A stretch of 64,000 nt of DNA. Origin: Planctomycetota bacterium (GTDB taxonomy: Bacteria; Planctomycetota; Planctomycetia; Pirellulales; Lacipirellulaceae). Within the stretch, counting starts at the first letter, position 1. Each line of letters begins with the position of its first letter. The position numbers and the translations under genes are program-made. The notes under the pieces were generated by a model. That model searched no databases. It saw nothing but the letters and a program-made list of their open reading frames with translations, and was not told the DNA's origin. Below, in pieces: positions 1,375 through 24,361 of this stretch. The stretch spans positions 8,978-72,977 of the forward strand of contig JBCCXZ010000012.1 of NCBI GenBank assembly GCA_039190745.1, written 5' to 3'.

Positions 1375-1872
1375 TTAGCCGAGTGCAGGCGGGCCGCGTG
1401 CGGGGTACTGCAACGCGAGCCGCAGCGGCTCGGCAACGTCGGACACCGGCGGCTCGTGCGGAGCCGACCAGAAAGCAGCGGGCACTTCGACCCGCTGCTC
1501 AAGAACCCTCGCGAGCGAGAGCAGCGAGCATAGAGAGCAATCGTCGCAACCTTCTAACGAAACCTGGGCCAAGAGAGCCGGGTCCGAAGAAGGCTCTTCA
1601 CTCGTGCTTCGGGGAGTTGCCGGTTGGCCGTGGCCAAAAGGACAGTCGCTGCAGCCACACAGCGAAGCAGACGAGCCCGATTCGTTGCCGCCGCCGTGGT
1701 GGGTGCTGTGATGGTGGATGCCGTGGTGGATGCCCGCCAGTCCGTGCAGCCCATAGCCCAAAGACGCAATACATGCATAGATCCCAATTAGGGACCATAC
1801 AAGAATCGGCGATGAAGGGCGGGGAGACACGAGGCCGACGGGAGTAGAAGAACGCAGCGGGCGGGGGGACAA
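1375..1872 (-). CDS. DUF2946-like Cys/His-rich leader protein ending in RGPP (putative ribosome-arrest peptide)
   Basis: Hydrophobic N-terminal segment, HHGIHHHSTHH, CxCxxC, CDDCSLC, C-terminal ARGPPALG; start codon uncertain. Confidence 0.75.
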   Translation of the reverse strand: MSPRPLRSSTPVGLVSPRPSSPILVWSLIGIYACIASLGYGLHGLAGIHHGIHHHSTHHGGGNESGSSASLCGCSDCPFGHGQPATPRSTSEEPSSDPALLAQVSLEGCDDCSLCSLLSLARVLEQRVEVPAAFWSAPHEPPVSDVAEPLRLALQYPARGPPALG

Positions 1873-1943
1873 AGACTGCCTGCGAACAGAAGTTCACGAC
1901 ACGCCGAGTCTATGCGACCGGGGCCCGAGGGTCAAATCGTTTC

Positions 1944-1958
1944 TGCAAATCAATTGCA
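1944..1958. promoter_or_regulatory. Putative Fur-family (Zur-like) operator TGCAA-N5-TTGCA
   Basis: TGCAAATCAATTGCA; the same palindrome occurs twice between the Fur-family gene and the COG0523 gene. Confidence 0.65.
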
Positions 1959-1988
1959 AATAGAGCGGCCCGCCCCCTGCCTCGCCAG

Positions 1989-2462
1989 TTACGCCAGCGG
2001 GGCGTCGTCCAACTCCACCAAAGCACTGATATACAGCAGCGAATTCCGCTGAGCCGGCGTCGGTGCTTGCCGCACCAAGTCGAGCGCCGCCCGCAACACG
2101 TCACGACGACTGATCTGCCCCAGCAAGCGACCCTCTTCCACAACCGGCAGACGCCGGTAACTCGTCAGCAAAAACAATTGTGCGATAGATAACAATTGCG
2201 TGTCGGCCGTGATCGTCTGCGCCTCGGTGTCCATGAACGCCCGCACACGATTGCTCGGCAACTGCTCGTACGCGGCGTCCAGCAGCACGTGCATCGAGCA
2301 CTTCTCGCTGAACACGCCCAGGTACCGGCCGTCGTCGTCCACGACGGGGGCGCCAGAGATACGCTTCTTCAGCAACAGCTGCACAGCGTTCAGCACGTCC
2401 ATGTCTGGGTGCAGCGTGACGAGTTTCTTCACCATGAAGTCGCGGGCGGCGAGCTGCTTCAT
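1989..2462 (-). CDS. Tandem CBS-domain protein
   Basis: Two CBS repeats (ISGAPVVDDDGRYLGVFSE; YRRLPVVEEGRLLGQISRRD). Confidence 0.9.
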   Translation of the reverse strand: MKQLAARDFMVKKLVTLHPDMDVLNAVQLLLKKRISGAPVVDDDGRYLGVFSEKCSMHVLLDAAYEQLPSNRVRAFMDTEAQTITADTQLLSIAQLFLLTSYRRLPVVEEGRLLGQISRRDVLRAALDLVRQAPTPAQRNSLLYISALVELDDAPLA

Positions 2463-2620
2463 TGCCTGGGGTCCTCCTCGCCCAACAAGCGCGGGCGTCC
2501 ATCAAGACAAGCGAGACAATAAGAAAAGGGCCGCGTTGGCTGGTTCTGTGTCGAACTCATTACGTCCGTAATCGGTGCGTCGCGGTTGCTCTATCGTATC
2601 CGAGAATCAGTGCCAAGAGA

Positions 2621-2638
2621 TTGTGAAAACATTCACAG
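2621..2638. promoter_or_regulatory. Rex-type operator (one mismatch)
   Basis: TTGTGAA-AACA-TTCACAG versus consensus TTGTGAA-N4-TTCACAA. Confidence 0.6.
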
Positions 2639-2667
2639 CCGCAAACCCGGGTGCAAAGAGCCGTAGC

Positions 2668-2685
2668 TTGTGAAAGAATTCACAA
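2668..2685. promoter_or_regulatory. Rex-type operator (perfect match)
   Basis: TTGTGAA-AGAA-TTCACAA. Confidence 0.7.
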
Positions 2686-2739
2686 GCCGCTCACACCCGC
2701 CGAAGCCACGGGCTGTTCGGAAACAGAGAAACCACCGCC

Positions 2740-4545
2740 ATGGACCTTAGCGACGCGCTCGACGCGATTTCCGCGGCGTTCTTCGCCCTCTTGGGCGTCT
2801 GGGCCGCACTCGACCGGCGGCACTGGTTTCTGCGCTTCGCGGTAGTCTCGGTCTTTCTTTTTGCCTCGCTGCTGGTCCCCGCGTTCGAGATCGTCCTCGA
2901 ATTCGGCGTCCTGATTTTATTGATCAACGCCGGAGTTTGGCTCGCCATGCTCAGCCGAAACTGGCCGCCAAGGCTCTCCATGGAGTCGGCCCTCCTCGCG
3001 ATGGTCGTCGTCGCGGTGCTCTCTGCAGTTGCCGGCGCGGTCCCCTCGCTCGACGCCCGCACGTGGGCGTTCTGCATGTCCGTGGCGTGCGGCGGAGCAG
3101 CGATCGCGCTGGGCTGCGTGCAGCTCGTCTTCGGTTCCCGGAGGCTGCTCGTCCGCATCGCTTTTTTCCCCGCGTTTGTCGCCGCCGCACTAGCGTCGAT
3201 CGCCGTGATCCGGGGCATCAAGAACTCAGCCCTCGGACGTGGGTTTACCTTGCTGCCCAACGGGCAGACCCTGGTCGACTTCGCGAAAGACCACGGCGGA
3301 GCGTTCGTCCTGGGGACCGTCCTAATCCTCGCCGCCCTCTTGCTTGCCCGTGAGACGCAGTGGTTCCACAACGCGCCAGAAGACACAACCCCGTCTCGAT
3401 GGCGGCTCGTCGGCAGCCGCTGGACGCTCGCCACCCTCGTCACGGCGATCTTCGCACCGCTCTTCCTGATCTTTCTGCGTCTGCTCTTCCCAACGCCGCT
3501 GCCGCCGATCGAACTGCCCAACCCCAACGGCTACGACGACATCGTCGCCGCCGGGCGGATAGCCCCGCTCAAGGAACTCCAAGGCATCGCCCGAGACAAA
3601 AAGTCGGGCGTGCCGCTGAGTAAAGCGATTGTCAAGCTGGAGCCGGTTTACGAGCTCATCGATCAGTCCCTGGCCAAACCCATAGTCTCACCTCACTACC
3701 ACCCGAACGAGAGCGAGCAATCGCGCCGAGATACCGAAGCGGAGCTTTCGGCCTTGATGGCCCTCTCGTTCCGGGCAGACGCCGCCATCCGCCAATCTAA
3801 AATCGATCGCTCCGTCGATGACCTATTCAATATCTTGCGTGTCGGCAGAAGCCTCAAGAACGATATTGGCCACGCTTGGACGGCATCAAGGTGGTCCGAG
3901 TCGATCTTCATCAATCTTGTCAGCTCAGGCCTTCCGCACTTCGACCCCGGAACATGCAGGCAGATCGCACAACAGTGCATCTCGCACGACTCGACCCGCC
4001 AGCCAGTAAAGGACCTCACCCAACGCCGACGCATCATCGACGACAACCACGACTGGAAGAACAACCTCTGGAACACACTCGCGGATATCTCGGGGGAGGA
4101 TCACTACGCATGGATAGAGGATTGGCAGAAGAGCAAGTCGGTCGATATGCGGCTGCTGATCACCCAGCTCGGCGTGCAGGCTTACTACTCCGAGAGAGGC
4201 GCACTCCCCGCATCACTCGATCAACTCGTCCCCAACTACCTCGACGCGATTCCACTCGACCCCTTCGGTGATGGCCCGCTCCGCAGCGTCCGCGGCCGCC
4301 GCTCGCTGACCGTCTACAGCGTCGGCCGCGACGGGCTCGACCAAACCAACGTCGTCAGTGATACGCCGATCACCGGCGACGACGTATCGGTACCTGCCCC
4401 GCGTTACGGGCTCGCCGAGTGCTTGTGGTTCATGCTCGCCGACCGCGTCGAACCGCTCGCCCGAACCCTCCAGCAGATTCTTGTAGAAAGTGGCCGCCTC
4501 ATCCGAGATAATGCGGCCAGGCTCGAACAAGCCAACGTTCCTTGA
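2740..4545 (+). CDS. Multi-pass membrane protein with a C-terminal GspG-like tail
   Basis: Several N-terminal TM segments; C-terminal LPASLDQLVPNYLDAIPLDPF...VYSVGRDG motif. Confidence 0.65.
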   Translation: MDLSDALDAISAAFFALLGVWAALDRRHWFLRFAVVSVFLFASLLVPAFEIVLEFGVLILLINAGVWLAMLSRNWPPRLSMESALLAMVVVAVLSAVAGAVPSLDARTWAFCMSVACGGAAIALGCVQLVFGSRRLLVRIAFFPAFVAAALASIAVIRGIKNSALGRGFTLLPNGQTLVDFAKDHGGAFVLGTVLILAALLLARETQWFHNAPEDTTPSRWRLVGSRWTLATLVTAIFAPLFLIFLRLLFPTPLPPIELPNPNGYDDIVAAGRIAPLKELQGIARDKKSGVPLSKAIVKLEPVYELIDQSLAKPIVSPHYHPNESEQSRRDTEAELSALMALSFRADAAIRQSKIDRSVDDLFNILRVGRSLKNDIGHAWTASRWSESIFINLVSSGLPHFDPGTCRQIAQQCISHDSTRQPVKDLTQRRRIIDDNHDWKNNLWNTLADISGEDHYAWIEDWQKSKSVDMRLLITQLGVQAYYSERGALPASLDQLVPNYLDAIPLDPFGDGPLRSVRGRRSLTVYSVGRDGLDQTNVVSDTPITGDDVSVPAPRYGLAECLWFMLADRVEPLARTLQQILVESGRLIRDNAARLEQANVP

Positions 4546-4825
4546 CAACCGAATGGGGGGCGTTATCGCAGCGCTGATAGCCGCCGACCTACGCGTCGGC
4601 GGTGGTGCGTGAGAGGTCAATCGCAAACCCCAGTATCGAGAATCCCAATACTACGCCGCGAAAAACCCTGCACGAGATTACGTAAACCCCGAGTCGTTTT
4701 GCCCGCCGCTCGATAGCTGCGACTCTACGAGTCGCTGGCGAACCCAAGACCGATGCGGTCAAAAGAAAGCGACTAGTGTCACGCCAGAGCGTGATCGCTG
4801 TTTTCACGCCAAAACTAAGCAGCGG

Positions 4826-5938
4826 CTACAGCCCCTCGTTGAGCCCCTGCAAGTCGGCCGGCACAAACCGCCCGTCCTTCCGCAGCAGCTCGCCGTCGAA
4901 CCACACCTCGCCGCCGCCGTAGTCCTCCCGCTGGATCAGCACCATGTCCCAGTGGATCTGGCTGCGGTTGCCGTTGTCGGCGATCTCGTAAGCCTGGCCG
5001 GGCGTGAGGTGGAAGCTGCCGCCGATCTTCTCGTCGAACAGCGTGTCGAGCATCGGGTGACGCACCCGGTTGTTCGTGCCTAGCGACCACTCGCCGCAGT
5101 ACCGGGCGCCTTCGTCGCACTGGAAGATCGCGTTCAGGTCGGCCGTCCGGTTCGAGGTCGCCTTCACGATCTCGCCGTTCTTGAACTCCAGTTCCACGTT
5201 CTCGAACACCTTGCCCTGATACTCGCTCGGCGTGTTGAACCGGATCACCCCGTTGATGCTGTCCCGCACCGGCGCGGTGAACACCTCGCCGTCGGGGATG
5301 TTCCGCTCCCCGTTGCAAGGGATCACGGGGATGCCCTTGATCGAGAACTCCAGCTCGGTCCCCTCGGCCGTGATCCGCACATGGTCGGCCGCCTCCATCC
5401 GCTTGACCAGTGGCTTCTGAGCCTCGGCCATCGCCTTGTAGTCGGCCGTGCAGACGTCGAAGAAGAAGTCCTCGAAGGCCTCGGTGCTCATCCGAGCCGC
5501 CTGGGCGAACGAATCGGTCGGGTAGCGCAGCACGACCCACTTCGTCTCCGGCACCCGCGACTCGCCGTGCACGGGCTTCCACCAGTGCTCTTGGTAGAGG
5601 TCCATCCGCTCCTGCGGCACGTCAGCGAACTGCGTGGCGTTCGAGGAGCCGCGGATGGCGATGAAGGCGTCCATCGCGTCCATCCGCTCCTTCTCGAACC
5701 TGCCGGCGAGCTTCATGCTCTCCTCGGTCGCATGGCGGTAGAGCGACCGGAGGACTTCGTTACTCTGCCACTTTGCCAACGGCACAGCGCCCCGCTTGGC
5801 AGCCCCTTCGATGAGCGCACAAACCAGCGCCGGCGAGGGCAGGTCTTCCGCTTCGATGAGGATCTTCTCACCACCCTTCAACTGGCAGCTGTGGTCGAGA
5901 AGGAGGTCGGCGAGCGTCTGGATGCGGGGGTCGCGCAT
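4826..5938 (-). CDS. Aminopeptidase, peptidase family M29 (AmpS/AmpT-like)
   Basis: NIPDGEVFTAP, GEWSLG, DTLFDEKIGGSFHLTPG, SQIHWDM; start moved to MRDPRI. Confidence 0.9.
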   Translation of the reverse strand: MRDPRIQTLADLLLDHSCQLKGGEKILIEAEDLPSPALVCALIEGAAKRGAVPLAKWQSNEVLRSLYRHATEESMKLAGRFEKERMDAMDAFIAIRGSSNATQFADVPQERMDLYQEHWWKPVHGESRVPETKWVVLRYPTDSFAQAARMSTEAFEDFFFDVCTADYKAMAEAQKPLVKRMEAADHVRITAEGTELEFSIKGIPVIPCNGERNIPDGEVFTAPVRDSINGVIRFNTPSEYQGKVFENVELEFKNGEIVKATSNRTADLNAIFQCDEGARYCGEWSLGTNNRVRHPMLDTLFDEKIGGSFHLTPGQAYEIADNGNRSQIHWDMVLIQREDYGGGEVWFDGELLRKDGRFVPADLQGLNEGL

Positions 5939-6100
5939 GCGTGGGTGTCTCAATAGTGGCAAGCTGCAGGAACCGACGGAATCCCTACGATGCTACGGCT
6001 TTTGGAGGCCTTCCACAATCGGACGAGAGCGCCCCGCGCGTTATAATTCAGGTGAGCCGGCACGAAGTCGGCGCAGCACGCTTTGCAGAACGAGAACCCC

Positions 6101-8023
6101 ATGGCTACCGGCGCCCCTTCCCCCCCCGGGACCGACCACAACGCCCCGTCGTTCGCTGAGACTGCGCTCACCCTCGGCGGCAAGAGCGCCGACGAGGCCC
6201 GCCGCACCGGAGCGATCGACAAGGCAGACGACCAGGTCGAAGCGCTCTTCGCACCGCAGTACCAGACGGTCAACAGCCCGGCCCACCGCGTGGTGTGGGA
6301 GAAGGGCGCCCCGGTGTCGTTGTTCCAGAGCGAGCCCGCCGCCGCCCCGCCCGAGGCCCAGCGGGTGATGGACGACTCGGTCGAGGTCGTCCGCCGCCAC
6401 CGCCGCGGCGCCACGCTCCACGACGAAGCCGGCAAGATCCGCCCCGAGGTGATGCAAGACCTCGGCGAGGCCGGCTACTGGGGACTGCTGGTCGACCCGC
6501 AGTACGGCGGCCAGGGGACCCCGTTCGCCGCGTTCGCGCCGTTCCTTACCCGAATGGCCACCGTCGACCCCACCATCGCCGGCCTGGCGTCGGTCCACGG
6601 CTGCATCGGGGCAGTCGACCCCGTCAGCAGCTTCGGCAACGACGAGCAGAAAGAACGGTTCCTGCCCGACCTGGCCAGCGGCCAGCGGCTGAGCGCCTTC
6701 GCCCTCACCGAGCCCGGCGCCGGCAGCGACCTCACCGCCCTCCGCACCCGCGCCGTCTTAGACGGCGACCACTACGTCGTCCACGGCGAGAAGCTGTTCA
6801 TCACCAACGTCGTCCCGGGGCGCACCATCGGCTTGGTCTGTCTCATCAACGACAAGCCCGCCGTGCTTGTCGTCGACCTGCCGGCCGAAGAGTCCGAACA
6901 GTTCCAGATCCGCAAGTACGGCCTCTGGGCGCTCAAGCACACGCACAACCAGGGCCTCGTGTTCAACGGCCTCCGCGTGCCGGCGGAGAACCTGCTCAAG
7001 CCGCCCCGCGGCAACGGCCTGACCATTGCCTACCACGGCCTGAACCTCGGCCGCATCGCGCTCTGCGCCAACGCCGCGGGCACGATGCGGATCATGCTCG
7101 CCAGCATGATCCCGTGGTCCAACTTCCGCGTCACGTACAGCGAGCCGATCGCCCGCCGCGAGCTGGTTCAGCGTCGCATGGGGCAGCTCGCCGGGCTGAT
7201 CACCGCCAGCGATGCGCTGGTCGCCTGGTGCGCTCAGCTCATCGACCACGGCTACCGCGGCGAGATGGAGTGCACGATCGCCAAGGTGTTCGGCAGCGAG
7301 GCCCAGAAGCACGCGGCCATCGAACTGTTCATGAAGACCCACGGCGGCCGGTCGTTCCTGCACGGCCACCTGCTGGGCGACAACGTCCACGAGTACCTCG
7401 CCCCCTGCATTTATGAGGGCGAAGGCGAGATGCTCAGCATGGCGTTCTTCAAGTCGCTCGTAAAACACCACGGTGTGACGTACTTCGAGCCGGTCGGTAA
7501 AGCCCTCGCCGCGGCGGGCATCAAGAAGCCCAACCCGCTGAACCCCGCCCACGCCTGGGCCCTGCGGAGCGTCGCACTGCCCTTCCTCAAGTGGATGGTC
7601 GCCCGTCGGCTTGCCCCCGCGGCGAAGACCGCCATGCCCGAGATGCCCCCCGCGCTCCGCGGCCACGCCGAGTTCGCCTGCGACGCCCTGCAGCGGATGG
7701 CCGTCGAAATCTCCGGCACGATGCAGAAATTCCAGCTCAAGCTCGCCGACCGGCAGTGCCGCATGGCCGAGCTCTCGCTCCGCTGCCAGGCGCTCATCAC
7801 GGTGCTGTGCACCAGCCTCTACGGAGCGCGTCAGGAAGACGAGCTCAGCCGCGAGGCGGCGGACATCTTCTGCCAGGAGCAACGCCAGCAGTACATAGGA
7901 CGCCGGCCCTCCAACCGCTACTACAAGCAGGTCACGCAGCTCGGCGCCGCGATCGCCGAAGGCGGCTACCGGCCCATCGAGGGTCTGCAGCCGGATGAAG
8001 TGATGATGCCATACGAGGCGTAG
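6101..8023 (+). CDS. Acyl-CoA dehydrogenase family protein
   Basis: AFALTEPGAGSD, GEKLFIT, IYEGEGEM; ATG start at 6101. Confidence 0.9.
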   Translation: MATGAPSPPGTDHNAPSFAETALTLGGKSADEARRTGAIDKADDQVEALFAPQYQTVNSPAHRVVWEKGAPVSLFQSEPAAAPPEAQRVMDDSVEVVRRHRRGATLHDEAGKIRPEVMQDLGEAGYWGLLVDPQYGGQGTPFAAFAPFLTRMATVDPTIAGLASVHGCIGAVDPVSSFGNDEQKERFLPDLASGQRLSAFALTEPGAGSDLTALRTRAVLDGDHYVVHGEKLFITNVVPGRTIGLVCLINDKPAVLVVDLPAEESEQFQIRKYGLWALKHTHNQGLVFNGLRVPAENLLKPPRGNGLTIAYHGLNLGRIALCANAAGTMRIMLASMIPWSNFRVTYSEPIARRELVQRRMGQLAGLITASDALVAWCAQLIDHGYRGEMECTIAKVFGSEAQKHAAIELFMKTHGGRSFLHGHLLGDNVHEYLAPCIYEGEGEMLSMAFFKSLVKHHGVTYFEPVGKALAAAGIKKPNPLNPAHAWALRSVALPFLKWMVARRLAPAAKTAMPEMPPALRGHAEFACDALQRMAVEISGTMQKFQLKLADRQCRMAELSLRCQALITVLCTSLYGARQEDELSREAADIFCQEQRQQYIGRRPSNRYYKQVTQLGAAIAEGGYRPIEGLQPDEVMMPYEA

Positions 8024-8119
8024 TGGTCCGCGCCTTGGATTCTGTTCTACACGGTCAGCCCCACGAGAGTTCTAGGCAGTCACTCTGAACGACAACTGCA
8101 GCCATCGAGCTAGCTCAGT

Positions 8120-9424
8120 CTACTCGTCCACAGGCAACTCTTTGACCTGGAGCTCTCCTACACGCAAATCCCCGTACAGAACCTTCGCCACCGCCGGTTC
8201 GTCGGCTTGACCGTCGGGTTTAGCGTGCCACCAGGCAACGATCTTGTCTGAGTCGCCGAACCGGACGCCTTCACCGCGGTAGCGCCACACCTGATCGGCG
8301 GCAATCTGTTCGAGGAACATCGCACCCCGAGCGAACGATTGCTGCAGCTGCATGCCGATCTTCAGCCGCTCGAACCCTTCCGCCTCCAGGAGGTCCGGGC
8401 GGTTGAGCGCGTCGGCGAGCTTCTTCATCACGGCCGGTCGCTGCTGCTTGTCCCGAGCAGCCTCGAGCACCTGCTCCTGGATGATCGAGACCAGCGTCAT
8501 GGTATTGAACCGCGCCGGAAACTCATCGTCGTTCAGCTTCACGATGAAGCGGATCAGGCCAACGAATTCCTCCTGCCCGCCGCCCTGGAGGTCGACCTCG
8601 AAACTCCGTAGCGAGTACCCCTCGGGGGGTTCTAGGCTGAAGAGCGACTCGTCGACCGGGGCGTTCCAAGCGAAGTCGGTCATGGTCATCCGGCTACCGG
8701 ATTGAGTCGTATTGCGGGATTCGCTGAAGAGGATCTTCAGTGGCAGATTATTTTCGGGGTCGATCCAAATGGTGCAGAACTCTCCCTGGCGATCCACCAA
8801 GAATTTCAACGCGGACTGTTCTCCCACCTGCTCCCGGCCGACGTACTCCGCCGACTCATCGGTGAGTTTGCGGAACTCTTCGATCAGGTGCTTGTGCTGC
8901 GGTTCGCCGGGGCCGGCCGAGAGCTCCAAGGCATTGGCCTGCTTCACCGCCGGCATAAGCAACAGGCCTTTTTCTGCCCGGAAGTCGTACAGCTGCACGA
9001 AAGACGTGGGGCCGACCTCCATCTCCATCCTCATCCAGGCCGGTTCTAGCAGCGCGATCTGGCTGGCGACCTCCACTTCGTCATCCGAGTAGATCGTCAG
9101 CCGATAAGTCGCGGTCCGGATCTCCTGGAAGTGATCCAGCATCGCGGCGAAGGCGGCGCCCTGGCCGCCGTTCATCTGCACCAACAACCACCCCGCTGCG
9201 ATAAGCACAACCAACACAGCGACGGAAAGCACACGGCTCATGACTAATCCTCCGACGAGTCCAGGAAGGGGCGGAGGAGAGACCTCCTCCGGAGTTTGCG
9301 CCAGCTGCGCGACCAAACGCTTGTTCAAATCCTCGGGAGGCCCCTCGGGCACAGCCTGTCCAGCGAAGGCCTCGACCCACTGGTCGACGGGGTCAGGCGA
9401 TGGTTCGGGATGATTTCGGTTCAT
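8120..9424 (-). CDS. Putative anti-sigma factor: single TM plus periplasmic LolA-like domain
   Basis: Overlaps the 3' end of the ECF sigma gene; TM segment, then IWIDPENNLP...FAWNAPVDESLFSLEPPEGY. Start moved to MNRNHP. Confidence 0.6.
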   Translation of the reverse strand: MNRNHPEPSPDPVDQWVEAFAGQAVPEGPPEDLNKRLVAQLAQTPEEVSPPPLPGLVGGLVMSRVLSVAVLVVLIAAGWLLVQMNGGQGAAFAAMLDHFQEIRTATYRLTIYSDDEVEVASQIALLEPAWMRMEMEVGPTSFVQLYDFRAEKGLLLMPAVKQANALELSAGPGEPQHKHLIEEFRKLTDESAEYVGREQVGEQSALKFLVDRQGEFCTIWIDPENNLPLKILFSESRNTTQSGSRMTMTDFAWNAPVDESLFSLEPPEGYSLRSFEVDLQGGGQEEFVGLIRFIVKLNDDEFPARFNTMTLVSIIQEQVLEAARDKQQRPAVMKKLADALNRPDLLEAEGFERLKIGMQLQQSFARGAMFLEQIAADQVWRYRGEGVRFGDSDKIVAWWHAKPDGQADEPAVAKVLYGDLRVGELQVKELPVDE

Positions 9425-9929: not shown

Positions 9930-10146
9930 GGCCCACTTGCCCGTCGGGTTTTGTTTCTCTATGCCGCACCCGGCTCGGTTTGCCGGGAGATTAGTGCCGC
10001 ACGCAATACAGTAGTCGCATTGCCGAGGGAGTTATTGCAGCGACGCTAGAAAAAAACCCTGGCAGTCCACCCGTGGAACTCAACCGAGTGTATGTCCTAT
10101 AACTGTTCTTGCGTTCCTGAATCGAGTGCTTTGAGCCCCCAGTACC

Positions 10147-10881
10147 ATGACGATTTCTGTGATCCTCCCCGCCGCCGGATCCAGCCAACGGTTCGGGGAC
10201 AAGAACTACAAGAAGCCCTTTGCCCCGCTATCGGGCCGGGCCGTGTGGCTCCACTCCGCCGAGCGGTTCCTCAACCGCAAGGACGTCGTGCAGGTGATCG
10301 TCTGCATCGCCGACGACGACCGTGAGGAATTCCAACGCAAGTTCGGGGCGAACATTGCCATCCTCGGCGTCGACGTCGTTAGCGGCGGAACCGAGCGGGC
10401 CGACTCGATTCAGAACGCCCTTGCCAAGGTGAAGCCGGAAGCGGAGTTCGTCGCCGTGCACGACGCGGCTCGTCCCTGCCTCGCCGACAAGTGGGTCGAT
10501 CGAGTGTTCGAGGCCGCCGCTAAGAGCGGCGCCGCGATTCTCGCCACACCGGTCGCCGCCACCGTCAAGCGCGTCGACTCCGGCCGGGTCGCCGAGACCG
10601 TCGACCGACGCGGCCTCTGGGCCGCCCAAACCCCGCAGGTCTTCCGACGCGAGCTGCTGGAGAAGGCCTACGCTTCTCGCAAAGGATCGAGCGCCACGGA
10701 CGACGCCCAACTCGTCGAGGCCGTTGGGGCCGAGGTAGCGGTCGTGGAGGGCTCGCCGCTCAACCTGAAGATCACCACCCGCGACGACCTGAAGCTCGCG
10801 GAGCAGGTGCTCAAGGTGCTGCCCCGTCCGAAAGCCGACGGCATGGCGAACCCGTTTGCCGGCGACGACCTCTGGAGATAG
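10147..10881 (+). CDS. ispD: 2-C-methyl-D-erythritol 4-phosphate cytidylyltransferase
   Basis: ILPAAGSSQRFG, VHDAARP, QTPQVF, TDDA, NLKITT. Confidence 0.95.
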   Translation: MTISVILPAAGSSQRFGDKNYKKPFAPLSGRAVWLHSAERFLNRKDVVQVIVCIADDDREEFQRKFGANIAILGVDVVSGGTERADSIQNALAKVKPEAEFVAVHDAARPCLADKWVDRVFEAAAKSGAAILATPVAATVKRVDSGRVAETVDRRGLWAAQTPQVFRRELLEKAYASRKGSSATDDAQLVEAVGAEVAVVEGSPLNLKITTRDDLKLAEQVLKVLPRPKADGMANPFAGDDLWR

Positions 10882-10985
10882 GGCTCTAGCGGCAGAGTGA
10901 CATCAAGGCGACTGGCATTTCCTCTGCTGAGGGATGCTCTACGATAGGGCTCCCCTCACTCGGCTACACAAACCACATACCTGCT

Positions 10986-12275
10986 ATGAACCTGCTCGAA
11001 GACCTCCGCTGGCGCGGCGTCGTCCACCAGACCACCGATGAGGGGCTCGGCGATTGGCTCGAAGCCCAGCCGCGGACGGTGTACGTCGGGTTCGATCCCA
11101 CCGCCGACAGCCTGCACGTCGGCAGCCTCCTGGGGCTGATCACGCTGCGGCGGTTGCAGCGGGCCGGCCACCGGCCGATCGCCGTTGTTGGCGGGGCAAC
11201 CGGCATGATCGGCGACCCCAGCGGCAAGAGTGCCGAGCGGAACCTCCTCTCCAAAGAGCAGCTCCAAGCCAACCTCGACGGCATGGCCGCCCAGATGCGG
11301 CGGTTCCTCGACTTCGACTGCGGCGACAACTCCGCCCTGCTGCTGAACAACCACGACTGGACCGGCCCCTGGAGCTACCTCGACTTCTTGCGCGACGTAG
11401 GCAAGAACTTTCCGGTGAACGTGATGCTCGCCAAGGACTCGGTGAAGAGCCGACTGGGTCGCCTCGAAGACGAGAAGCAATCCGGCGGTATGAGCTACAC
11501 CGAATTCAGCTACATGCTGCTGCAGGCGTACGACTTCGTGCAGCTAGCGCGAGAGCACGGCTGCGAGCTGCAAGCCGGCGGCAGCGACCAGTGGGGCAAC
11601 ATCACCGCCGGCATCGATCTGGCCCGCCGCATGGACGGCCGCCAGCTCTACGGGTTCACCTGGCCGCTGCTAACCAAGAGCGACGGCTCGAAGATGGGCA
11701 AGACCGAGAGCGGCGCCGTCTGGCTCGCCGCCGAGCGCACGAGTCCTTACGAGTTCTACCAATACTGGATCAACACCGAAGACGCTGACGCCGGCAAGTG
11801 CCTGCGGATGCTCACCGACCTGAGCCGCGAGGAGATCGAATCGCTCGACGCCGCTCGCGAGTCCGAGCCCGGCAAACGCGCCAGCCAACGCCGGCTCGCG
11901 GAATCACTTACCCGGCTGACCCACGGCGACGAGGGGCTGGCCGTCGCCGAGCGGGCCACCGCCATCTTCTTCGGCGCCGAGATCAGCGACCTCAACGACA
12001 ACCAGCTCGGCGAGATCTTCGCCGACGTGCCCAGCAAGCAGCTCGACAAGCAAACGCTCTCCGCGGGGCTGACGCTGATCGACGCGCTCGTCGAGGCCGG
12101 CCTCGCCAAGAGCAAGGGCGACGCCCGGCGTACCGTCCAGCAAGGAGGCGCCTACGTCAACAACCGACGGGCCGAGGGCATCGAAACCACGCTCACACCG
12201 AAGCACCTCGCGGGCGAGACCACCATGGTCCTCCGCAGCGGCAAGAAAAAGTACGCGGTGCTCCGGTTCCAGTAA
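10986..12275 (+). CDS. tyrS: Tyrosine--tRNA ligase
   Basis: YVGFDPTADSLHVG, GGSDQWGNI, KMGKT, C-terminal S4 domain. Confidence 0.98.
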   Translation: MNLLEDLRWRGVVHQTTDEGLGDWLEAQPRTVYVGFDPTADSLHVGSLLGLITLRRLQRAGHRPIAVVGGATGMIGDPSGKSAERNLLSKEQLQANLDGMAAQMRRFLDFDCGDNSALLLNNHDWTGPWSYLDFLRDVGKNFPVNVMLAKDSVKSRLGRLEDEKQSGGMSYTEFSYMLLQAYDFVQLAREHGCELQAGGSDQWGNITAGIDLARRMDGRQLYGFTWPLLTKSDGSKMGKTESGAVWLAAERTSPYEFYQYWINTEDADAGKCLRMLTDLSREEIESLDAARESEPGKRASQRRLAESLTRLTHGDEGLAVAERATAIFFGAEISDLNDNQLGEIFADVPSKQLDKQTLSAGLTLIDALVEAGLAKSKGDARRTVQQGGAYVNNRRAEGIETTLTPKHLAGETTMVLRSGKKKYAVLRFQ

Positions 12276-12296
12276 GCCGCCCGCAGGCGGAGCGGT

Positions 12297-12752
12297 TCAC
12301 TCCAGTGTCAGTCCCCAAAGACTGCCGGGCTTTTCTGTCGTCAGCCGGACCGTGCCGACCAACCGATCGCCCTTGAGTTCTGCAGCGAGCTCCCGCTCCG
12401 AGAGCAGCCTCCACTCCAAAGGCCCTCGAGCTACCCGGCGGACCTCTCCACGCCCCCCGCTGATCGGCCCCTGGTAATCAAGGTAGTGCAAGCGGTGGTC
12501 GGGCAGTTGGCGGGCCGGGACCGTCTCGGGAGCCGACGGGTCGCCGCTCGGCAGGCCTCGCAGCCAGCCCTCCGGGAGGGTCAGCAGCTCCCAGGTCCGC
12601 AGCACGCCGTCAGATTCGAGCATCAAATCCCAGTGATCCGCTCGCCCCGATCCAGTCGGCATCTTGTGTCGGAGCAGCACAAAACGCTCCACGCGGCTAT
12701 CCTCGCGTACGGGCCGTGTCTCGGTGAACCTTGACCCCAAACCCGGGGTCAC
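12297..12752 (-). CDS. Stand-alone LigD 3'-phosphoesterase-like domain protein
   Basis: FVLLRH...HWDLMLE...LRTW...DHRLHYLDYQGPI; true start probably near 12692. Confidence 0.7.
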   Translation of the reverse strand: MTPGLGSRFTETRPVREDSRVERFVLLRHKMPTGSGRADHWDLMLESDGVLRTWELLTLPEGWLRGLPSGDPSAPETVPARQLPDHRLHYLDYQGPISGGRGEVRRVARGPLEWRLLSERELAAELKGDRLVGTVRLTTEKPGSLWGLTLE

Positions 12753-12787
12753 TTACAAGAGCGTACAGAAGCAGCCGACAATCCGCG

Positions 12788-12862
12788 ATGTACTCCGTCA
12801 TGCACCCCGCGTTAGACCTACTCCTAGGCCTCCTATTAACCCCCGCAGAGGGCGGGTCCTAG
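12788..12862 (+). CDS. leuL: leu attenuator leader peptide MYSVMHPALDLLLGLLLTPAEGGS
   Basis: 7 Leu codons in 9 positions (TTA GAC CTA CTC CTA GGC CTC CTA TTA), directly upstream of a terminator and leuA; alternative start at 12800. Confidence 0.85.
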   Translation: MYSVMHPALDLLLGLLLTPAEGGS

Positions 12863-12897
12863 GGTTGTTCTGCGGAATCACGACCGTATACACCAGA

Positions 12898-12927
12898 CCC
12901 TGGGGCCCGAAGCCCCGGGGTTTTTTT
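12898..12927 (+). terminator. Attenuator terminator of the leuA leader
   Basis: CCCTGGGGC-CCGAA-GCCCCGGGG then T7; the left arm can alternatively pair with 12855-12865. Confidence 0.88.
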
Positions 12928-13000
12928 GTGGATCGAACTTCTCCAATTCACATGCCGCTTCTCACGCTAAGCACTCTGACGCGGCCCAAAGGAAGAAACG

Positions 13001-14584
13001 ATGGCTGAGCCCAGCCCGCATCCAACCGGATCCGACGATCAGCGTCGGATTGTGATCTTCGACACCACGCTCCGCGACGGCGAGCAGTCCCCCGGCTGCA
13101 GCATGAACCTGGATGAGAAGCTTGAGGTGGCCCAAGCTTTGGTCGATTTGGGGGTCGACGTCATCGAAGCCGGTTTCCCCATCGCTTCGCCAGGTGATTT
13201 TGAGGCGGTCCGCGAGATCGCCCGCTCGGTCCGCGGCAATACTATCTGCGGACTCGCACGGTGCAACGACAAAGACATCGACCGCGCCGCCGAGGCGCTC
13301 GCCGACGCACCCGACGCCCGCATCCACGTGTTCCTCGCCACCAGCGCCATCCACCGTGAGTTTAAGCTCCGGATGGACAAGGCAGAAATCATCCAGCGGG
13401 CCACAGCAGGCGTCGAACGAGCCAAGGCCGCTTGCGACAACATCGAGTTCTCGCCCGAAGACGCCGCACGCACGGAGGTGGACTTCCTCTGCGAGGTGGT
13501 CGAGGCCGCTATCGCCGCCGGGGCCACCACCGTCAACATCCCCGACACGGTCGGCTACGCCACGCCCTCGCAGTACGGCGGCACAATCAAGACGCTCATC
13601 GACCGCGTGCCCAACATCGGTCAGGCCGTCATCAGCGTCCACTGCCACAACGACCTGGGGATGGCCGTCGCCAACAGCCTCTCGGCGGTCGAGAACGGCG
13701 CCGGGCAGATCGAGTGCACCATCAACGGCATCGGCGAGCGGGCCGGCAACTGCTCGCTTGAAGAAGTCGTCATGGCCATGCGCACCCGGAGCGACTACTA
13801 CGGCGTCGATACCGGCATCAACACGCAAAGGCTCGTCCCTACTAGCCGGCTCGTGACCGGCATCACCGGCATGCTGGTGCAACGAAACAAGGCGATCGTC
13901 GGCCGCAACGCCTTCGCGCACGAGGCGGGCATCCACCAAGACGGCATGCTCAAGGAACGCACGACCTACGAAATCATGCGGCCCGCCGATGTCGGTTTCG
14001 CTGACACCGATCTTGTTCTGGGCAAGCACAGCGGGCGCGCCGCCCTCGCCGACCGGGCCGCCGCTCTGGGCTACCCGCTTGAGGGTGAGCAGCTTGCCCG
14101 GGTCTTCGAGCGTTTCAAGGAACTCGCCGACAAGAAAAAGGAAGTCTACGACGGAGACATCGTCGCGCTGGTCGAAGACCGCTCCGAAGAGGACGGCCGC
14201 GACGAATGGCGGCTGGAGTCCTACGAAGTGCAGGCCGCCCACGGCCAGACGCCCACCGCCACGATCACGCTCCGTCGAGATGAAGACTCACGCACGGCCA
14301 CGGTCTCCGCGGGCGACGGCCCGCTCGACGCGCTCTTCCGGGCAATCGAGGATCTGATCGGCAAGAGCGTCGTGGTACGAGACTTCCGCGTCCAGAGCGC
14401 CACCCGCGGAAAAGACGCCCAAGGCGAGTCGGTCGTCGAGGTCGAATACCAAAACCGACTCTACCGCGGCCGCGGCGTCTCGACCGATACGGTCGAGGCC
14501 GGGGTGCGGGCCTTCATCCACGCGCTCAACCGCGTCGAGGCGGGCGCCGGGCAGCCGCTGTCCGACCGACCTGAGAGCGTATGA
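13001..14584 (+). CDS. leuA: 2-isopropylmalate synthase
   Basis: [36 protein letters not shown], regulatory domain. Confidence 0.97.
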
Positions 14585-14610
14585 GTCGGCCGCCGCATCC
14601 TACTCGACGG

Positions 14611-15126
14611 CTAAGAGACGAAAGCAAGCCAGTAGAAACACCAGCCGGTCACGGCAGTCAGCACCATGTCGGCCGCCGCGATGCGGGCCCAACGCAGGTG
14701 GAACCGACTGTGCTCCGCCGGCATCGGAGGGTTCGGGAATTTCCGCAACGCCCGAATGAGCACCAACGGCCACAACACGACCGTGCTGATCGCGAACACG
14801 AGATGCACCTGCAGTGCCCGCCACACGGCCTGCGAAGCCGACCCGCCGATCTCCCCGGAGGCGCGGTCCTCCCAGCCGAACACCCGCACGTCGACCTCAA
14901 ACGCCCCCACGGCCACGGCCAGCACCGCCCCCAGCGCTACCTGTACATTGCGGTGCAACACATACCGCCCGCGGCGAGCCTGCAGAACACTCCACCAAAG
15001 CACCGGCAGCACCGCGAACATGGCCAGAAACACCACGTCGGTCATGAACGAGGCGCGGGTGCCGAGGAATCCATCCCACCCTGGGTAACTCATGCTCGGC
15101 CTAGCGACTGGAACTCGGGGCATCAA
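14611..15126 (-). CDS. DUF420-family membrane protein
   Basis: 4 TM segments with His residues (LHRNVQ, VHLVFA, FHLRWA), TAVTGW. Confidence 0.7.
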   Translation of the reverse strand: MMPRVPVARPSMSYPGWDGFLGTRASFMTDVVFLAMFAVLPVLWWSVLQARRGRYVLHRNVQVALGAVLAVAVGAFEVDVRVFGWEDRASGEIGGSASQAVWRALQVHLVFAISTVVLWPLVLIRALRKFPNPPMPAEHSRFHLRWARIAAADMVLTAVTGWCFYWLAFVS

Positions 15127-15295
15127 TCTGCTGGCTCGCGGGAAACTTCCGCATTGCCGCGGTTGGACCGAGGCCGGCCAGCCGCTAGTCTGGCCATCGG
15201 CTCCTGGCGCGATACGGAATCAGCTGGAGATTAATCGCTTCGGGATGCGCCGGTCGCAAGGCCCCAAACAGTACCGGCGCCCCAAGAAAGAACCA

Positions 15296-15381
15296 GGCCG
15301 AGTGGCGGAATTGGCAGACGCTCTGGACTTAAAATCCAGTGGGGGGTAACCCCCGTGAGGGTTCGAGTCCCTCCTCGGCTA
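15296..15381 (+). tRNA. tRNA-Leu (anticodon TAA)
   Basis: GGCCGAG/CTCGGCT acceptor stem, CTGGA-CTTAAAA-TCCAG anticodon arm, long variable arm, GTTCGAG T-loop; CCA not encoded. Confidence 0.96.
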
Positions 15382-15499
15382 CTAGACCAAGAAATTGAAC
15401 GGCTCGAATCGCCATATGGAAAGCTCCAACGCCTTATGGCAACAGCGGTGTTGGTCGGGGGATAACGCTCAACGCTTCAGCGATTGCGTATCTTCCGCT

Positions 15500-15943
15500 C
15501 TAGCCTGACTCGCAGTGACCACAGTGGCCGCGGATCATAATCTCGGTGACAGTACCTAGCTTCTCCCGCCGACCGCCTCGCGAAGGCTTAATCTGAAACG
15601 AATAATCCTCCAGGCAGGTCAGCCGACCGCAATCGACGCACATAAAGTGTGGGTGGGTAAACTCCGACTTGCTATCCGCACCTCTCAGCTCAAACCGTCT
15701 AGTATGATCCCCTAGGTCAAGCCTCGTCACGAGGCCAGCGTCCGCGAGCTCGTTCAAGCAACGAAAGAGCGTGGACTGATCGAACCCGAAGTCGCTCAGG
15801 GATTCGACGACTTCGGCGTGGGTCATCGGGGATGCCTCCGACGCCAGCAGCCTCAGAACCGCCACCCTTGCGGCAGTGGCGCGCAGGGCCACGTTCCGGA
15901 GGGTCTGTTTCGCCCAAGTTGCGTTTTTCTTGGGGAGCTTCAT
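15500..15943 (-). CDS. Fur-family transcriptional regulator (likely Zur-like)
   Basis: LRATAARVAVL, STLFRCL, HPHFMCVDCG, C-terminal GHCGHC; divergent from a COG0523 gene. Confidence 0.88.
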   Translation of the reverse strand: MKLPKKNATWAKQTLRNVALRATAARVAVLRLLASEASPMTHAEVVESLSDFGFDQSTLFRCLNELADAGLVTRLDLGDHTRRFELRGADSKSEFTHPHFMCVDCGRLTCLEDYSFQIKPSRGGRREKLGTVTEIMIRGHCGHCESG

Positions 15944-16001
15944 GCAATCTTCCTGCGGGACGAGAAGACTTTTTTAGAGCTTAGCCAAGCGCCAGCCCAC
16001 T

Positions 16002-16016
16002 TGCAATTGCATTGCA
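16002..16016. promoter_or_regulatory. Putative Fur/Zur operator 1
   Basis: TGCAA-TTGCA-TTGCA in the divergent promoter region. Confidence 0.65.
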
Positions 16017-16061
16017 CTTGCTGATTTCGCCGTTTTGCCAAGACCATCATACCCGCGCTAT

Positions 16062-16076
16062 TGCAATTCAATTGCA
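16062..16076. promoter_or_regulatory. Putative Fur/Zur operator 2
   Basis: TGCAA-TTCAA-TTGCA, 60 bp from operator 1. Confidence 0.7.
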
Positions 16077-16151
16077 TTAAGGTAGCTTGCGTTTAGATAT
16101 TGTCCCATTAGGGATATAACTTCCGTCCAGAGCGAGCGATTCATCAGCGCA

Positions 16152-17402
16152 TTGCCCATGCAGAAATCACTCCCAGTCACGGTCCTTTCCGGCTTCCTCG
16201 GCGCCGGCAAGACAACGGTCCTCAACCACGTGCTCGCCAATCGATCGGGGCTCCGTGTCGCGGTGATCGTCAACGACATGAGCGAGGTGAACATCGACGC
16301 CTCGTTGGTCCGCGGCGGTCAGTCGACCCTAAGCCGCACCGAAGAGAAGCTCGTCGAGATGACGAACGGGTGCATCTGCTGCACGCTCCGCGAAGACTTG
16401 CTCCAAGAGGTAGCAGAACTAGCCAGGGACGGCCGCTTCGACTACCTGCTGGTCGAGTCGACCGGCATTAGCGAGCCGCTGCCGGTGGCAGAGACCTTCA
16501 CGTTCGCTGACGAAGAGGGCGACAGCCTGTCCGACGTGGCTACGCTCGACACGATGGTGACCGTCGTGGACGCCGGCTGTTTCCTGAGCGACTTCGGTTC
16601 GTCCGACGATCTGGTCGATCGAAAGATGGGGCTTAGCGACGAGGACGAACGCAATGTCGTAGACCTGTTAACCGATCAGGTTGAGTTCGCGAACGTGATC
16701 CTGCTCAATAAGTACGACCTGATCGACGAGCCGGACAAGCTGATGCTGCTGGGCGTGCTGCGGAACCTCAACCCGAAGGCGCGGATCATCGAGACCCTGC
16801 ACGGCAAGATCGACCCCGGAGCCATCATGGGGACCGGGCTCTTCTCGATGGACGAAGCCAGCGCCCAGCCCGGCTGGCTGGAGGTGCCACGCGGCGAAGA
16901 GCAGCCCGAGACCGACGAGTACGGCATCACGAGCTTCGTCTACCGCGCCCGCCGGCCGTTCCACGCGGCCCGATTGTGGGATCGACTCAACCAGGAAGGC
17001 GGCATCCTGGCGGGCGTCCTGCGGTCGAAGGGGTTCCTCTGGGTCGCCTCTCGGCACGACTACGCATACGTCTGGGCCCACGCGGGGGTCTCGGTGCAGT
17101 TGAACCCAGCCGGCTTGTGGTGGGCGGCGGCGCCCGACGACGAGTGGCCCGAAGACACTCCCGAAAACGCCGAGCTGCTGGAAGATATCCGCAGCGAGTT
17201 TGATGACCCATTTGGCGACCGACGCCAAGAGATCGTATTCATCGGCATCGAAATGGACCGCCCGGTCATCGAGTCGATGCTGGAAGACTGCCTCCTGACC
17301 GACGAAGAGCTTGCATTCGGACCGGACCGGTGGGTCGATTTCGAAGACCCGCTGCCCACCATCGAGTGGCAGGACGGGGAGCCGATCGAGGAGAACCTGT
17401 GA
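16152..17402 (+). CDS. COG0523/CobW-family zinc metallochaperone GTPase (YciC/ZigA-like)
   Basis: [27 protein letters not shown], CobW C-terminal RSKGFLW and [11 protein letters not shown]. Confidence 0.95.
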
Positions 17403-18001
17403 GTCGTCTGGAGTCGATAGCGCCGGAATCGATTGAGAATGAAGCCTCCGATCACGGTACGGCCAACCCCTGGGCGGACCGGGCGGGGCTTGTAGCCTCG
17501 GTGGCGTGCGCCATCCATTGCGCGGCGATGCCGCTTGTGATCGGCTACCTGCCGATGCTTGGGTTGAGTTGGCTCGCGGACGAGTCGTTCCACAAGGTCA
17601 TGGCACTGGTTTGCTTTGGCCTGGCGGCGTTGGCGTTCTTGCCGGGGTGGCGCAGGCATGGGAGCCTCGCCCCGGTGCTGGTTGGATCGACCGGGGTGGT
17701 TCTGCTGGCGGTCGCGGCCTTCGGGCTCGAATGCGATGGCTGCGCGACCTGCTCGGAAACTAGCCTAGCGGCCGCAGAAGAGCCAGTTTGCAGCGCAACG
17801 GATTGTGCCCATTGCGCAGAAGCAGAGCCGGAAACCGTGGGCGAAGCCGCGGCTGTCGGCTCGATCGCGTGGTTTACGCCGCTGGTAACTCCACTCGGGG
17901 GGGTGCTGCTCGTTGCCGGGCACTTGACGAATCACCGGAAATCGTGCGCCTGCTGCGGAAAAGGCTGTCCGCATGATTCCGAGGCGTCTGCCGAATCATA
18001 G
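17399..18001 (+). CDS. MerC-domain membrane protein with Cys-rich insert and tail
   Basis: [15 protein letters not shown] motif; [22 protein letters not shown] start overlaps the upstream stop. Confidence 0.8.
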
Positions 18002-18097
18002 CCGAAAATAGACGGCCTTTTTGCACCCAGTTCCTCGCCCAGGCAACCTCCCAGGCGCTGTGAAAAGCCTTATTCTTCCTTGCCTAGAAGGCTCTGC

Positions 18098-18112
18098 TGC
18101 AACACAATTGTA
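18098..18112. promoter_or_regulatory. Putative Fur/Zur operator (1 mismatch) ahead of the second RGPP leader
   Basis: TGCAA-CACAA-TTGTA, 18 nt before ATG 18131. Confidence 0.5.
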
Positions 18113-18130
18113 GTAGAGCCTAATCTACTT

Positions 18131-18562
18131 ATGCACCGCATTCTCAACAAAACCGCCGCTTGGTTAGCACTAGCGCACGTTGTGCTAGTAGGTGGTCTCG
18201 GTACGGGCCTGCACGCCTTGCTAGGCTGCGAGCATGGGTTGACCGAAAACTGCTCCGCCGCCTGCTGTGTGTCCGCCAAGTCGACGAGCGCTAGCTGTGA
18301 AGACTGCGTCTACTGCAGGCGGGCGGCTGAAAAGCAAAACAGCAACGACCAGCAAGAAGAAACCCTCGTCGCCGATGCGGGCCAGTGCTGCGGCGGTTGC
18401 GCCGTCTGCGATCTGCTGGCCCAGTATCAGAGCGTGACGCCTTTCGCCGTCGAGCCGCTCGCGATCGAGTTGGCCTCGGGCGAAGCGCCGATACAGCACG
18501 AGAACGCGGTGATCGCCGCCGCGATCCGTCTGTCCCATTCTCGCGGCCCACCCGTGGCTTGA
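18131..18562 (+). CDS. DUF2946-like Cys-rich leader protein ending in RGPP (putative ribosome-arrest peptide)
   Basis: TM-like N-terminus ...GLGTGLHALLG, CEDCVYC, CCGGCAVC, C-terminal HSRGPPVA. Confidence 0.78.
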   Translation: MHRILNKTAAWLALAHVVLVGGLGTGLHALLGCEHGLTENCSAACCVSAKSTSASCEDCVYCRRAAEKQNSNDQQEETLVADAGQCCGGCAVCDLLAQYQSVTPFAVEPLAIELASGEAPIQHENAVIAAAIRLSHSRGPPVA

Positions 18563-18613
18563 CCTTCGTTGCCTTCGCTCCGAAGGCTCGTCCGTTCAGT
18601 GCCGCTCTGCCAT

Positions 18614-18628
18614 TGCAACACTCTCGCA
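18614..18628. promoter_or_regulatory. Possible degenerate Fur/Zur box before the permease
   Basis: TGCAA-CACTC-TCGCA (1 mismatch). Confidence 0.35.
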
Positions 18629-24328: not shown

Positions 24329-24361
24329 CCCACTTCTTTACCCTTCTCAACAGAGCCTGCC

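Follow-up and report, generated by a model that had tools for sequence, protein, structure and literature searches.

What is the function of two short genes which end in nearly the same way and lie behind similar palindromic boxes? This question is raised by a stretch of 64,000 nucleotides (in the following: the window) from a planctomycete of the family Lacipirellulaceae (contig JBCCXZ010000012.1, assembly GCA_039190745.1). The two genes, L1 (1375..1872, minus strand, start at TTG 1872 or GTG 1830) and L2 (18131..18562, plus strand, 143 aa), resemble leaders of the DUF2946/CruR type. Judging from sequence and with moderate confidence, we regard them as leaders at which ribosomes would stall at an RGPP motif, which would probably sense zinc through a CxxC motif 43-44 residues away, and which would form a second layer of control under a Fur-family repressor, switched off by zinc. 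Taken by themselves, arrest of the ribosome at RGPP is very probable and the sensing of a metal by these leaders quite likely. Fixed spacing and metal-dependent release belong to a model already published for CruR; the new part is the zinc-type metal context of the leaders.

Two distantly related leaders in one genome

From its N-terminus L1 consists of a hydrophobic segment, a His-rich loop, a first Cys pair, the CxxC and the RGPP. Its motifs are LGYGLH and CDDCSLCSLL, followed after 43 residues by RGPP and, three codons further, by the stop (ALG-stop). The CxxC (CSLC, 1528..1539, minus strand) is the predicted metal site and the RGPP codons (1387..1398, minus strand) are, on the model of the peptides in PMC12992588, the predicted arrest site. 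L2 likewise has an N-terminal hydrophobic segment and reads LGTGLH, CGGCAVCDLL, 44 residues, RGPP and, after two codons, the stop (VA-stop); its CxxC (CAVC, 18398..18409, plus strand) opens a predicted helix (residues 91-100) and its predicted arrest site is at 18542..18553 (plus strand). These two open reading frames, with their positions, motifs, spacings of 43 and 44 residues and upstream boxes, had been described in the original prediction and are borne out by the sequence. Their paralogy also stands, while the view that they share little sequence does not: L1 and L2 are homologous end to end (hhalign 97.6%, E 2.6e-12, 24% identity) and are true, distantly homologous paralogues.

A third paralogue is encoded in the same genome (contig C5:46114-46674), and a profile of 14 L2 homologues run against 53,857 six-frame segments of the genome places L2, L1 (E 9e-12) and this copy (E 0.019) on the top ranks. 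In the third copy (locus C5:43923-49413) a His/Cys motif replaces the CxxC, and the protein belongs to an eight-member subgroup without the second Cys. Its locus has a perfect box 2.3 kb upstream, ahead of a thioredoxin-fold gene and a DUF1826 gene, and PEP-CTERM, DUF1559 and PEP-CTERM genes downstream.

Compared with a related genome (G001), the differences at codon positions 3, 1 and 2 number 60/32/19 in L1 and 32/21/14 in L2, and the codons of RGPP vary across 72 leaders, with every Gly and Pro codon in use; therefore selection acts on the leader protein. Because RGPP near a stop codon is frequent by chance in GC-rich six-frame space (61 frames), the evidence lies in conservation and not in the motif alone. 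The AF2 model of L2 consists of isolated helices, one of them beginning at the CxxC, and has no compact fold (pTM 0.34). No homologue of L1 came up in a word search, and no relative of the leaders was found among solved structures.

Conservation of the leader family

A profile made of 15 sequences matches in 68 of the 301 genomes of the order and in 542 protein representatives. The 84 fetched loci gave 94 profile matches, with the tail RGPP in 72, RAPP in 17 and neither in five, and in the 89 tailed matches the CxxC is found at 42-46 residues in 80, at 31 in one and is absent in eight. Among 151 proteins the tail is present in 148 and the CxxC lies 42-44 residues before it in 144 (SD 0.55), while between the N-terminal LH and the CxxC the distance is variable (42-115, SD 9.8, n 140); these spacing counts have to be read with the fact that the profile itself favours a spacing of 42-44, and related genomes are not independent in any of the family counts. 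Eight order-level matches were found via the N-terminal part alone, and here the spacing is 43 in frame in five, 43 in a second frame in one, 31 in one and broken in one. In a draw across the whole phylum (35 of 251 genomes) 28 of 29 loci have a spacing of 42-47, six of these with RPPP. The earlier expectation that RGPP and its spacing would be conserved among homologues is thus confirmed, and an arrest leader with fixed spacing is what this conservation suggests.

The RPPP tail marks a lineage of lower GC (L238, L239, L241, L244, L245, L247) with the CxxC at the same spacing of 43-44, and in five of these loci the next open reading frame resembles a secreted coiled-coil protein. The eight leaders without CxxC keep RGPP and have a His/Cys or His-only motif at equal distance. 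In 145 family members C90 is invariant and C93 is conserved to at least 90%, and the position three before the CxxC is a Cys in only 10 of 80 leaders; the conserved motif is CxxC and not the CxxCxxC that had been proposed. Homologues with a named source all come from Planctomycetota, Lacipirellulaceae among them. A search with PF11162 (DUF2946), which the original prediction had called for, left both leaders below the cut-off (L1 has 14 bits in a genome scan, against 23.7), and gave matches at E<=0.01 in 21 of 145 family members (best 5e-8). Thirteen of the 30 Atlas feature matches of L2 are DUF2946 clusters (best 0.94). By these comparisons the link of the leaders to PF11162/DUF2946 is real but distant.

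Putative operator boxes and the Fur-family regulator

A perfect TGCAA-N5-TTGCA box, a putative operator, lies before L1 (1944..1958), where the predicted -35 follows 8 nt downstream of it, and is conserved in G001. The sigma70-like promoter assigned to L1 (TTGACC-17-TAGACT, 1907..1935, minus strand) is a consensus match alone, both hexamers of which also occur in G001. The putative operator of L2 (18098..18112) has one mismatch, is perfect in G001 and overlaps the -10 of an inferred promoter region (TTGCCT-17-CACAAT, 8/12, 18080..18112, plus strand) which is below the threshold of the promoter scan and has the same hexamers in G001. Two further perfect boxes (16002-16016 and 16062-16076, together 16002..16076) are found between the divergent genes for a Fur-family regulator (15500..15943, minus strand) and a ZigA-like GTPase of COG0523 (16152..17402, plus strand).

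In the window the box pattern has seven strand-matches (four sites) vs 0.09 expected, and none of 100 shuffles reaches seven. The whole genome contains six perfect sites, and other spacers between 0 and 12 yield 0-5. Five of the six are placed before L1, between the Fur-family and ZigA-like genes (two), before the cluster of thioredoxin, DUF1826 and third leader, and before a cluster reaching from an oxidoreductase to a second COG0523 gene. The last of these clusters (C43:25150-29326, L012) comprises a flavin oxidoreductase, a small membrane protein, two unknown open reading frames and a second ZigA-like GTPase. Among the leaders, 25 of 89 have a box within 330 nt upstream when up to one mismatch is allowed, compared with 0.8 in shuffles and none of 87 downstream coding stretches. 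The boxes also go together with the regulator: of the 66 genomes whose leader has the tail, 33 bear the regulator, and a boxed leader is found in 22 of these vs two of the other 33 (Fisher p 1e-6, computed on 21/33 and overstated by kinship).

In this genome and its relatives the box further precedes genes for ZigA-like GTPases, DUF1826, a ZIP transporter, zepA and COG0523 proteins. DUF1826 is named in Zur-regulated COG0523 clusters (PMC2770081) and listed in the Pseudomonas Zur regulon (PMC9431628). The regulon behind the box appears from these gene assignments to include zinc-acquisition genes, namely those for ZigA-like GTPases, DUF1826, ZIP and zepA. Several other box matches are intragenic or ahead of unrelated genes, and many boxed genes are of unknown function. 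In one genome (G147) the box count is not above that of the control pattern, and in another (G186) a dispersed repeat with a perfect box-like core inflates it (23 sites). Upstream of 43 leaders in regulator-free genomes no alternative palindrome stood out. The Zur motif passages of PMC6103462 give no TGCAA motif and no planctomycete Zur motif. A box-like site within the L2 gap (~18613-18628) was rejected as an operator; it is not conserved in G001, and such a site occurs in one of 88 gaps.

The Fur-family gene of the window is one of two in the genome; of 69 genomes with leaders, 35 contain close relatives of it. It likely encodes a zinc-type repressor, predicted to bind the box. When seven regulator-negative genomes were checked by family, a single Fur gene was found in six, and six of the seven are without a strict box. 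The neighbouring COG0523 GTPase scores 589 bits with the ZigA model (cut-off 600) vs 154 bits with CobW. Of the two metals which the original prediction had preferred over copper, zinc is supported by the gene context, and cobalt is not supported in view of these two scores.

Genes behind the leaders

L1 and L2 are each first in a predicted transcription unit, with a box and predicted promoter of their own and a long gap before the next gene, which is co-oriented. Behind L1 follow a DUF1559 prepilin-type gene (502..1260, minus strand) and the 5' part of a PEP-CTERM exoprotein gene (1..343, minus strand), which extends past the window and whose product has an invariant His and is predicted to adopt an Ig-like fold; a second PEP-CTERM gene is next on the contig (C12). 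The first gene behind L2 encodes an SO_0444-like ArsP_1 permease (18678..19832, plus strand; 187 bits, cut-off 300).

The first downstream genes of 88 leaders were scanned; they were called heuristically, and some were missed or truncated. They comprise 52 DUF1559, six ArsP_1, two class III signal, one DUF58 and one FmdE gene. Neither copper families nor families of the sec/yidC kind (secA, secDF, yidC) are found among these 88. Comparison of 31 non-DUF1559 first genes with NCBIfam identified seven as all3515/ZepA (245-273 bits, cut-off 75). Experiments have shown ZepA to be an exoprotein for zinc uptake which Zur represses, and a homologue from the PVC group behaved as zinc-specific (PMC10957091). 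Of the 22 first genes called in the phylum-wide set, 14 were scanned; two belong to the ZnuA family and ten encode unassigned secreted proteins of 407-480 aa. For one of the latter the top Atlas neighbour is a cluster with the automatic name zinc-regulated TonB-dependent receptor, and clusters named as porins reach the same value of 0.98.

The gene zepA is present in 25 of the 301 genomes. Directly upstream, within 1.5 kb, a leader is found in eight of these genomes, a box in seven and both in none; further upstream a leader heads the operon in five more genomes, and a box is present in five others. The regulator was not found in seven of the 25, and all seven have a leader directly before zepA, vs one of 18 with the regulator. 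It may be that a leader can take the place of the zinc repressor: in genomes that lack regulator and boxes, it would gate zinc-uptake genes such as zepA on its own. We put this forward tentatively and consider it rather doubtful. In a ZepA tree of 24 rows (G298, with a split match, was left out) seven of the eight leader-linked proteins fall in one clade and three changes are needed, and therefore only about two to three events may be counted and not seven.

In PEP-CTERM proteins behind leader-pilin pairs one His is invariant, the mature N-terminus often bears a His, and an Ig-like fold is modelled with confidence; the family may be regarded as a candidate zinc-scavenging exoprotein. For the PEP-CTERM protein behind L1 the only matches of the model (pLDDT 89.7) are generic Ig-like folds (best Z 6.3), and a homology to ZepA or to choice-of-anchor M proteins was discarded, as nothing except the sorting signal speaks for it. 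A [DE]HxH[ASC] motif was noticed in 18 of 53 leader-linked pilin-like proteins vs two of 33 pilin-like open reading frames of this genome (window gene 502-1260).

Leader-to-gene gaps

The gaps to the next gene measure 114 nt at L1 (1261..1374, minus strand, A-poor) and 115 nt at L2 (18563..18677, plus strand). The gap of about 115 nt noted before is correct for these two leaders and is not a fixed length, since over 54 leader-pilin loci the gap ranges from 42 to 457 nt (median ~140). Neither gap has a terminator-like site, no intrinsic terminator was found in them, and in an Rfam scan of the window (1-28000) a tRNA is the sole match. Folding of both gaps is no better than that of shuffles (z 0.21 and -1.45), and an RBS (ribosome-binding site) hairpin opened by stalling was rejected, as the modelled accessibility changes by a median of +0.005 (46 loci, p 0.22). 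The search for RBS-sequestering or terminating structures suggested in the original prediction thus found none. Gaps are pyrimidine-rich (0.575 vs 0.50 in coding DNA), and a Rho gene is present in the genome. By analogy and exclusion we prefer a CruR-like attenuation as the probable output mechanism.

The heptamer GCTGCGC occurs in 25 of 89 gaps, vs 4.8 in shuffles, 31 of 1333 stretches after ordinary open reading frames and none of 33 before the pilins of this genome. In the phylum-wide loci it is found in two of 28, and it has no fixed position or pairing. The enrichment is genuine at the level of the order but weak out of sample and was therefore kept out of the model.

Comparison with known arrest leaders

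The nearest known relative is CruR (Bp2923) of Bordetella, a DUF2946/PF11162 protein with a CxxC, 45 residues and RAPP (Roy et al. 2022, PMC9426467). According to this study, the CxxC-RAPP spacing is kept within 1-2 residues in more than 2000 DUF2946 proteins, and a few members occur in Planctomycetes; an insertion of five residues strongly lowers the Cu response; the signal peptide is dispensable and Zn has a moderate effect only; and Cu is proposed to relieve the arrest and so to permit Rho termination. CruR arrests with the third residue of the motif in the P site, and all seven Streptomyces proteins with a C-terminal RAPP/RGPP which are reported in PMC12992588 arrest in vitro. For the wider RAPP/RGPP class the P-site position is given in PMC10987492. 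The leaders share with CruR a length of ~145 aa, the N-terminal export-type segment, the CxxC, 43-45 residues, an R(A/G)PP two to three residues before the stop, the first place in the operon and the long gap to the next gene. They differ in having RGPP instead of RAPP, in scoring below the PF11162 cut-off (L1 and L2), and in the additional N-terminal GxGLH with its Cys/His cluster. Furthermore, a predicted Fur-family operator lies upstream of them, and their targets are DUF1559 pilin-like, PEP-CTERM, zepA, ArsP and ZnuA genes instead of the TonB or copper chaperone genes of CruR. By anatomy, as read from the sequences, they are of the CruR kind, and a variant of it, since the Pfam cut-off is not reached and the copper context is lacking.

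CutF of Rhodobacter capsulatus (PMC9973294, bioRxiv 10.1101/2025.02.05.636593) is also a DUF2946-like leader that acts in cis; its metal site contains Cys, and its C-terminus bears a Pro-rich motif for stalling. However, CutF has CxxxC and PPP, and there the stall lasts longer with Cu and an RBS hairpin is opened, an effect not predicted here. The same C-terminal core is found in ApdA, ApdP, the RQH family and the Streptomyces set (PMC10987492, PMC12992588), but ApdA and ApdP monitor Sec/YidC, and the leaders described here are not directly upstream of secA, secDF or yidC. The stall motif had been assigned to the ApdA/ApdP class, which holds for the R(A/G)PP core, whereas the closest class is DUF2946/CruR and not the secretion monitors. 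The source data of PMC12992588 list DUF1559 as enriched behind RAPP upstream open reading frames (112 vs 68, adjusted p 1e-31) and include planctomycete-type members upstream of DUF1559, one of them annotated as DUF2946. In Caulobacter the DUF2946 gene CC2720 heads the Zur-activated czrCBA-zntA operon directly behind a functional Zur site (PMC4176598) and hence also belongs to a zinc operon, but this is a case of efflux and activation with a different box (GTTA-N5-TAAC), and the parts of that paper available to us propose no leader function. The parts of PMC12992588 and PMC10987492 available to us give no zinc or operator interpretation of RAPP/RGPP peptides, nor are members of this branch among the peptides assayed there. 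Our literature search found no paper that proposes or tests a zinc-sensing member of the CruR/DUF2946 leaders.

Proposed mechanism and alternatives

We propose that the Fur-family protein (15500-15943) would bind the box and repress when zinc is ample, as the genomic context suggests. Once transcribed, the leader would stall the ribosome, as in the tested relatives, when the first Pro of RGPP occupies the P site; the last Cys would then be 46-47 residues away from the residue in that site, just past the exit tunnel. With an empty site the stall would let transcription pass through the long, pyrimidine-rich gap; binding of the metal would fold the CxxC-helix, pull on the chain and free the stall, so that Rho would terminate, both steps being modelled on CruR. 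Exported scavenging proteins and transporters would then be made only under zinc scarcity. The arrest with fixed spacing foreseen in the original prediction is in this respect the published CruR model and not a new one.

Several points weigh against this reading. No box is near 64 of the 89 leaders, and the L1 box is upstream of the -35, which is the position from which Caulobacter Zur activates the efflux operon headed by DUF2946 (PMC4176598); activation via the L1 box may occur. The first gene behind L2 resembles SO_0444 (below the cut-off), of a family named Cu/Zn efflux transporter and a poor fit to uptake, and 52 of 88 first genes encode DUF1559 pilin-like proteins of unknown function, a family which is large here (33 open reading frames in the genome). 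No zepA match was found in this genome, in a search whose control also gave no signal. The window regulator has weak Fur/PerR models as its best NCBIfam matches, the Zur model gives 15 bits and the metal is unreadable from the sequence. At the protein level PF11162 scores 12.8 bits for L2 and does not match L1 (gathering cut-off 23.7). RAPP-like motifs alone are insufficient for arrest (PMC12992588), and the C-over-G skew of the gaps is small (0.04), so that Rho action is borrowed from CruR. The preference of the profile for the spacing and the kinship of the genomes, mentioned above, belong to the same side.

The same switch might respond to another ion, Cu as in CruR, or Ni, Co or Mn, or to several, in an operon which is zinc-linked. 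CxxC and spacing do match the copper-specific CruR with its moderate Zn effect, ZnuA-family proteins score on Mn models too, and His-only CutF-like proteins are tied to Ni/Co; but the 88 first genes include no copper family, the neighbours are zepA, ZigA-like, ZIP and ZnuA genes, and the CobW score is far under that of ZigA, which makes this unlikely in our view. Somewhat less likely again is an export monitor of the SecM/ApdP type, in which the translocon would pull on the hydrophobic segment and free the stall, output would match export capacity and the cysteines would be structural. Both leaders have such a segment, the downstream genes mostly encode exported or membrane proteins and RGPP is found in Sec monitors, yet it is the distance from CxxC to R that is fixed and the one from hydrophobic segment to CxxC that varies, CruR works without its signal peptide, and the scan of first genes met no sec/yidC family.

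A switch of the CutF type would work in the opposite direction: with metal bound to the part that is exported, the stall would last longer, a hairpin covering the following RBS would open and efflux or handling genes would be turned on. The SO_0444-like permease behind L2, the Caulobacter efflux operon and the place of the L1 box fit this idea, which we nevertheless judge improbable in view of the negligible modelled shift in RBS accessibility, the long gaps with folds no better than shuffles, and zepA and ZnuA as uptake targets. That oxidation of the CxxC and not metal binding frees the stall is conceivable, as a CxxC can in general form a disulfide and the third paralogue has a thioredoxin-fold gene upstream; we give this redox sensor very little credence, since eight leaders have kept RGPP with a His/Cys or His-only motif at the place of the CxxC, which suits a metal site, and the regulon context is zinc-type. 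Hardly credible at all is that these are ordinary small metal-binding membrane or periplasmic proteins in which RGPP regulates nothing downstream. The motif alone may indeed not arrest, but RGPP, avoided more than any other 4-mer in many phyla (PMC12992588), has been retained here at a fixed spacing, the leaders are followed by a long gap and then by a gene in the same orientation, and the AF2 model has no compact fold.

In the literature as far as it was available to us, metal-sensing arrest leaders are shown only for copper (CruR, CutF). If the zinc-sensing leader proposed here is real, such control would extend to a second metal and would offer a direct test of the metal choice of a nascent CxxC and of the pulling force, which are open according to PMC12992588. 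In addition, operator, regulator and the conserved cassette of DUF1559 and His-bearing PEP-CTERM genes form a candidate zinc regulon for this order of planctomycetes, through which some members of two large families without known function would acquire a likely role.

Further genes of the window and of other leader loci

Between the ZigA-like gene and L2 a MerC-family membrane protein with a Cys-rich loop is encoded (17330..18001, plus strand; the true start is probably later). The cluster of regulator, zigA and leader starts directly after a tRNA-Leu gene (15296-15382), a possible integration site, and the GC content has no clear step there. Behind the first permease the L2 operon continues (19829..26541, plus strand) with genes for a DUF58 protein, a transglutaminase-like protein, a MoxR AAA ATPase, a His-rich lipoprotein-like protein and a second ArsP_1 permease. 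Its DUF58-transglutaminase-MoxR cassette (19829-24328) is also present behind leaders in several families (L015, L070, L076, L080, L091, L112), and Flp/Tad-type pilin clusters with the class III signal are headed by leaders at four loci (L063, L105, L116, L087).

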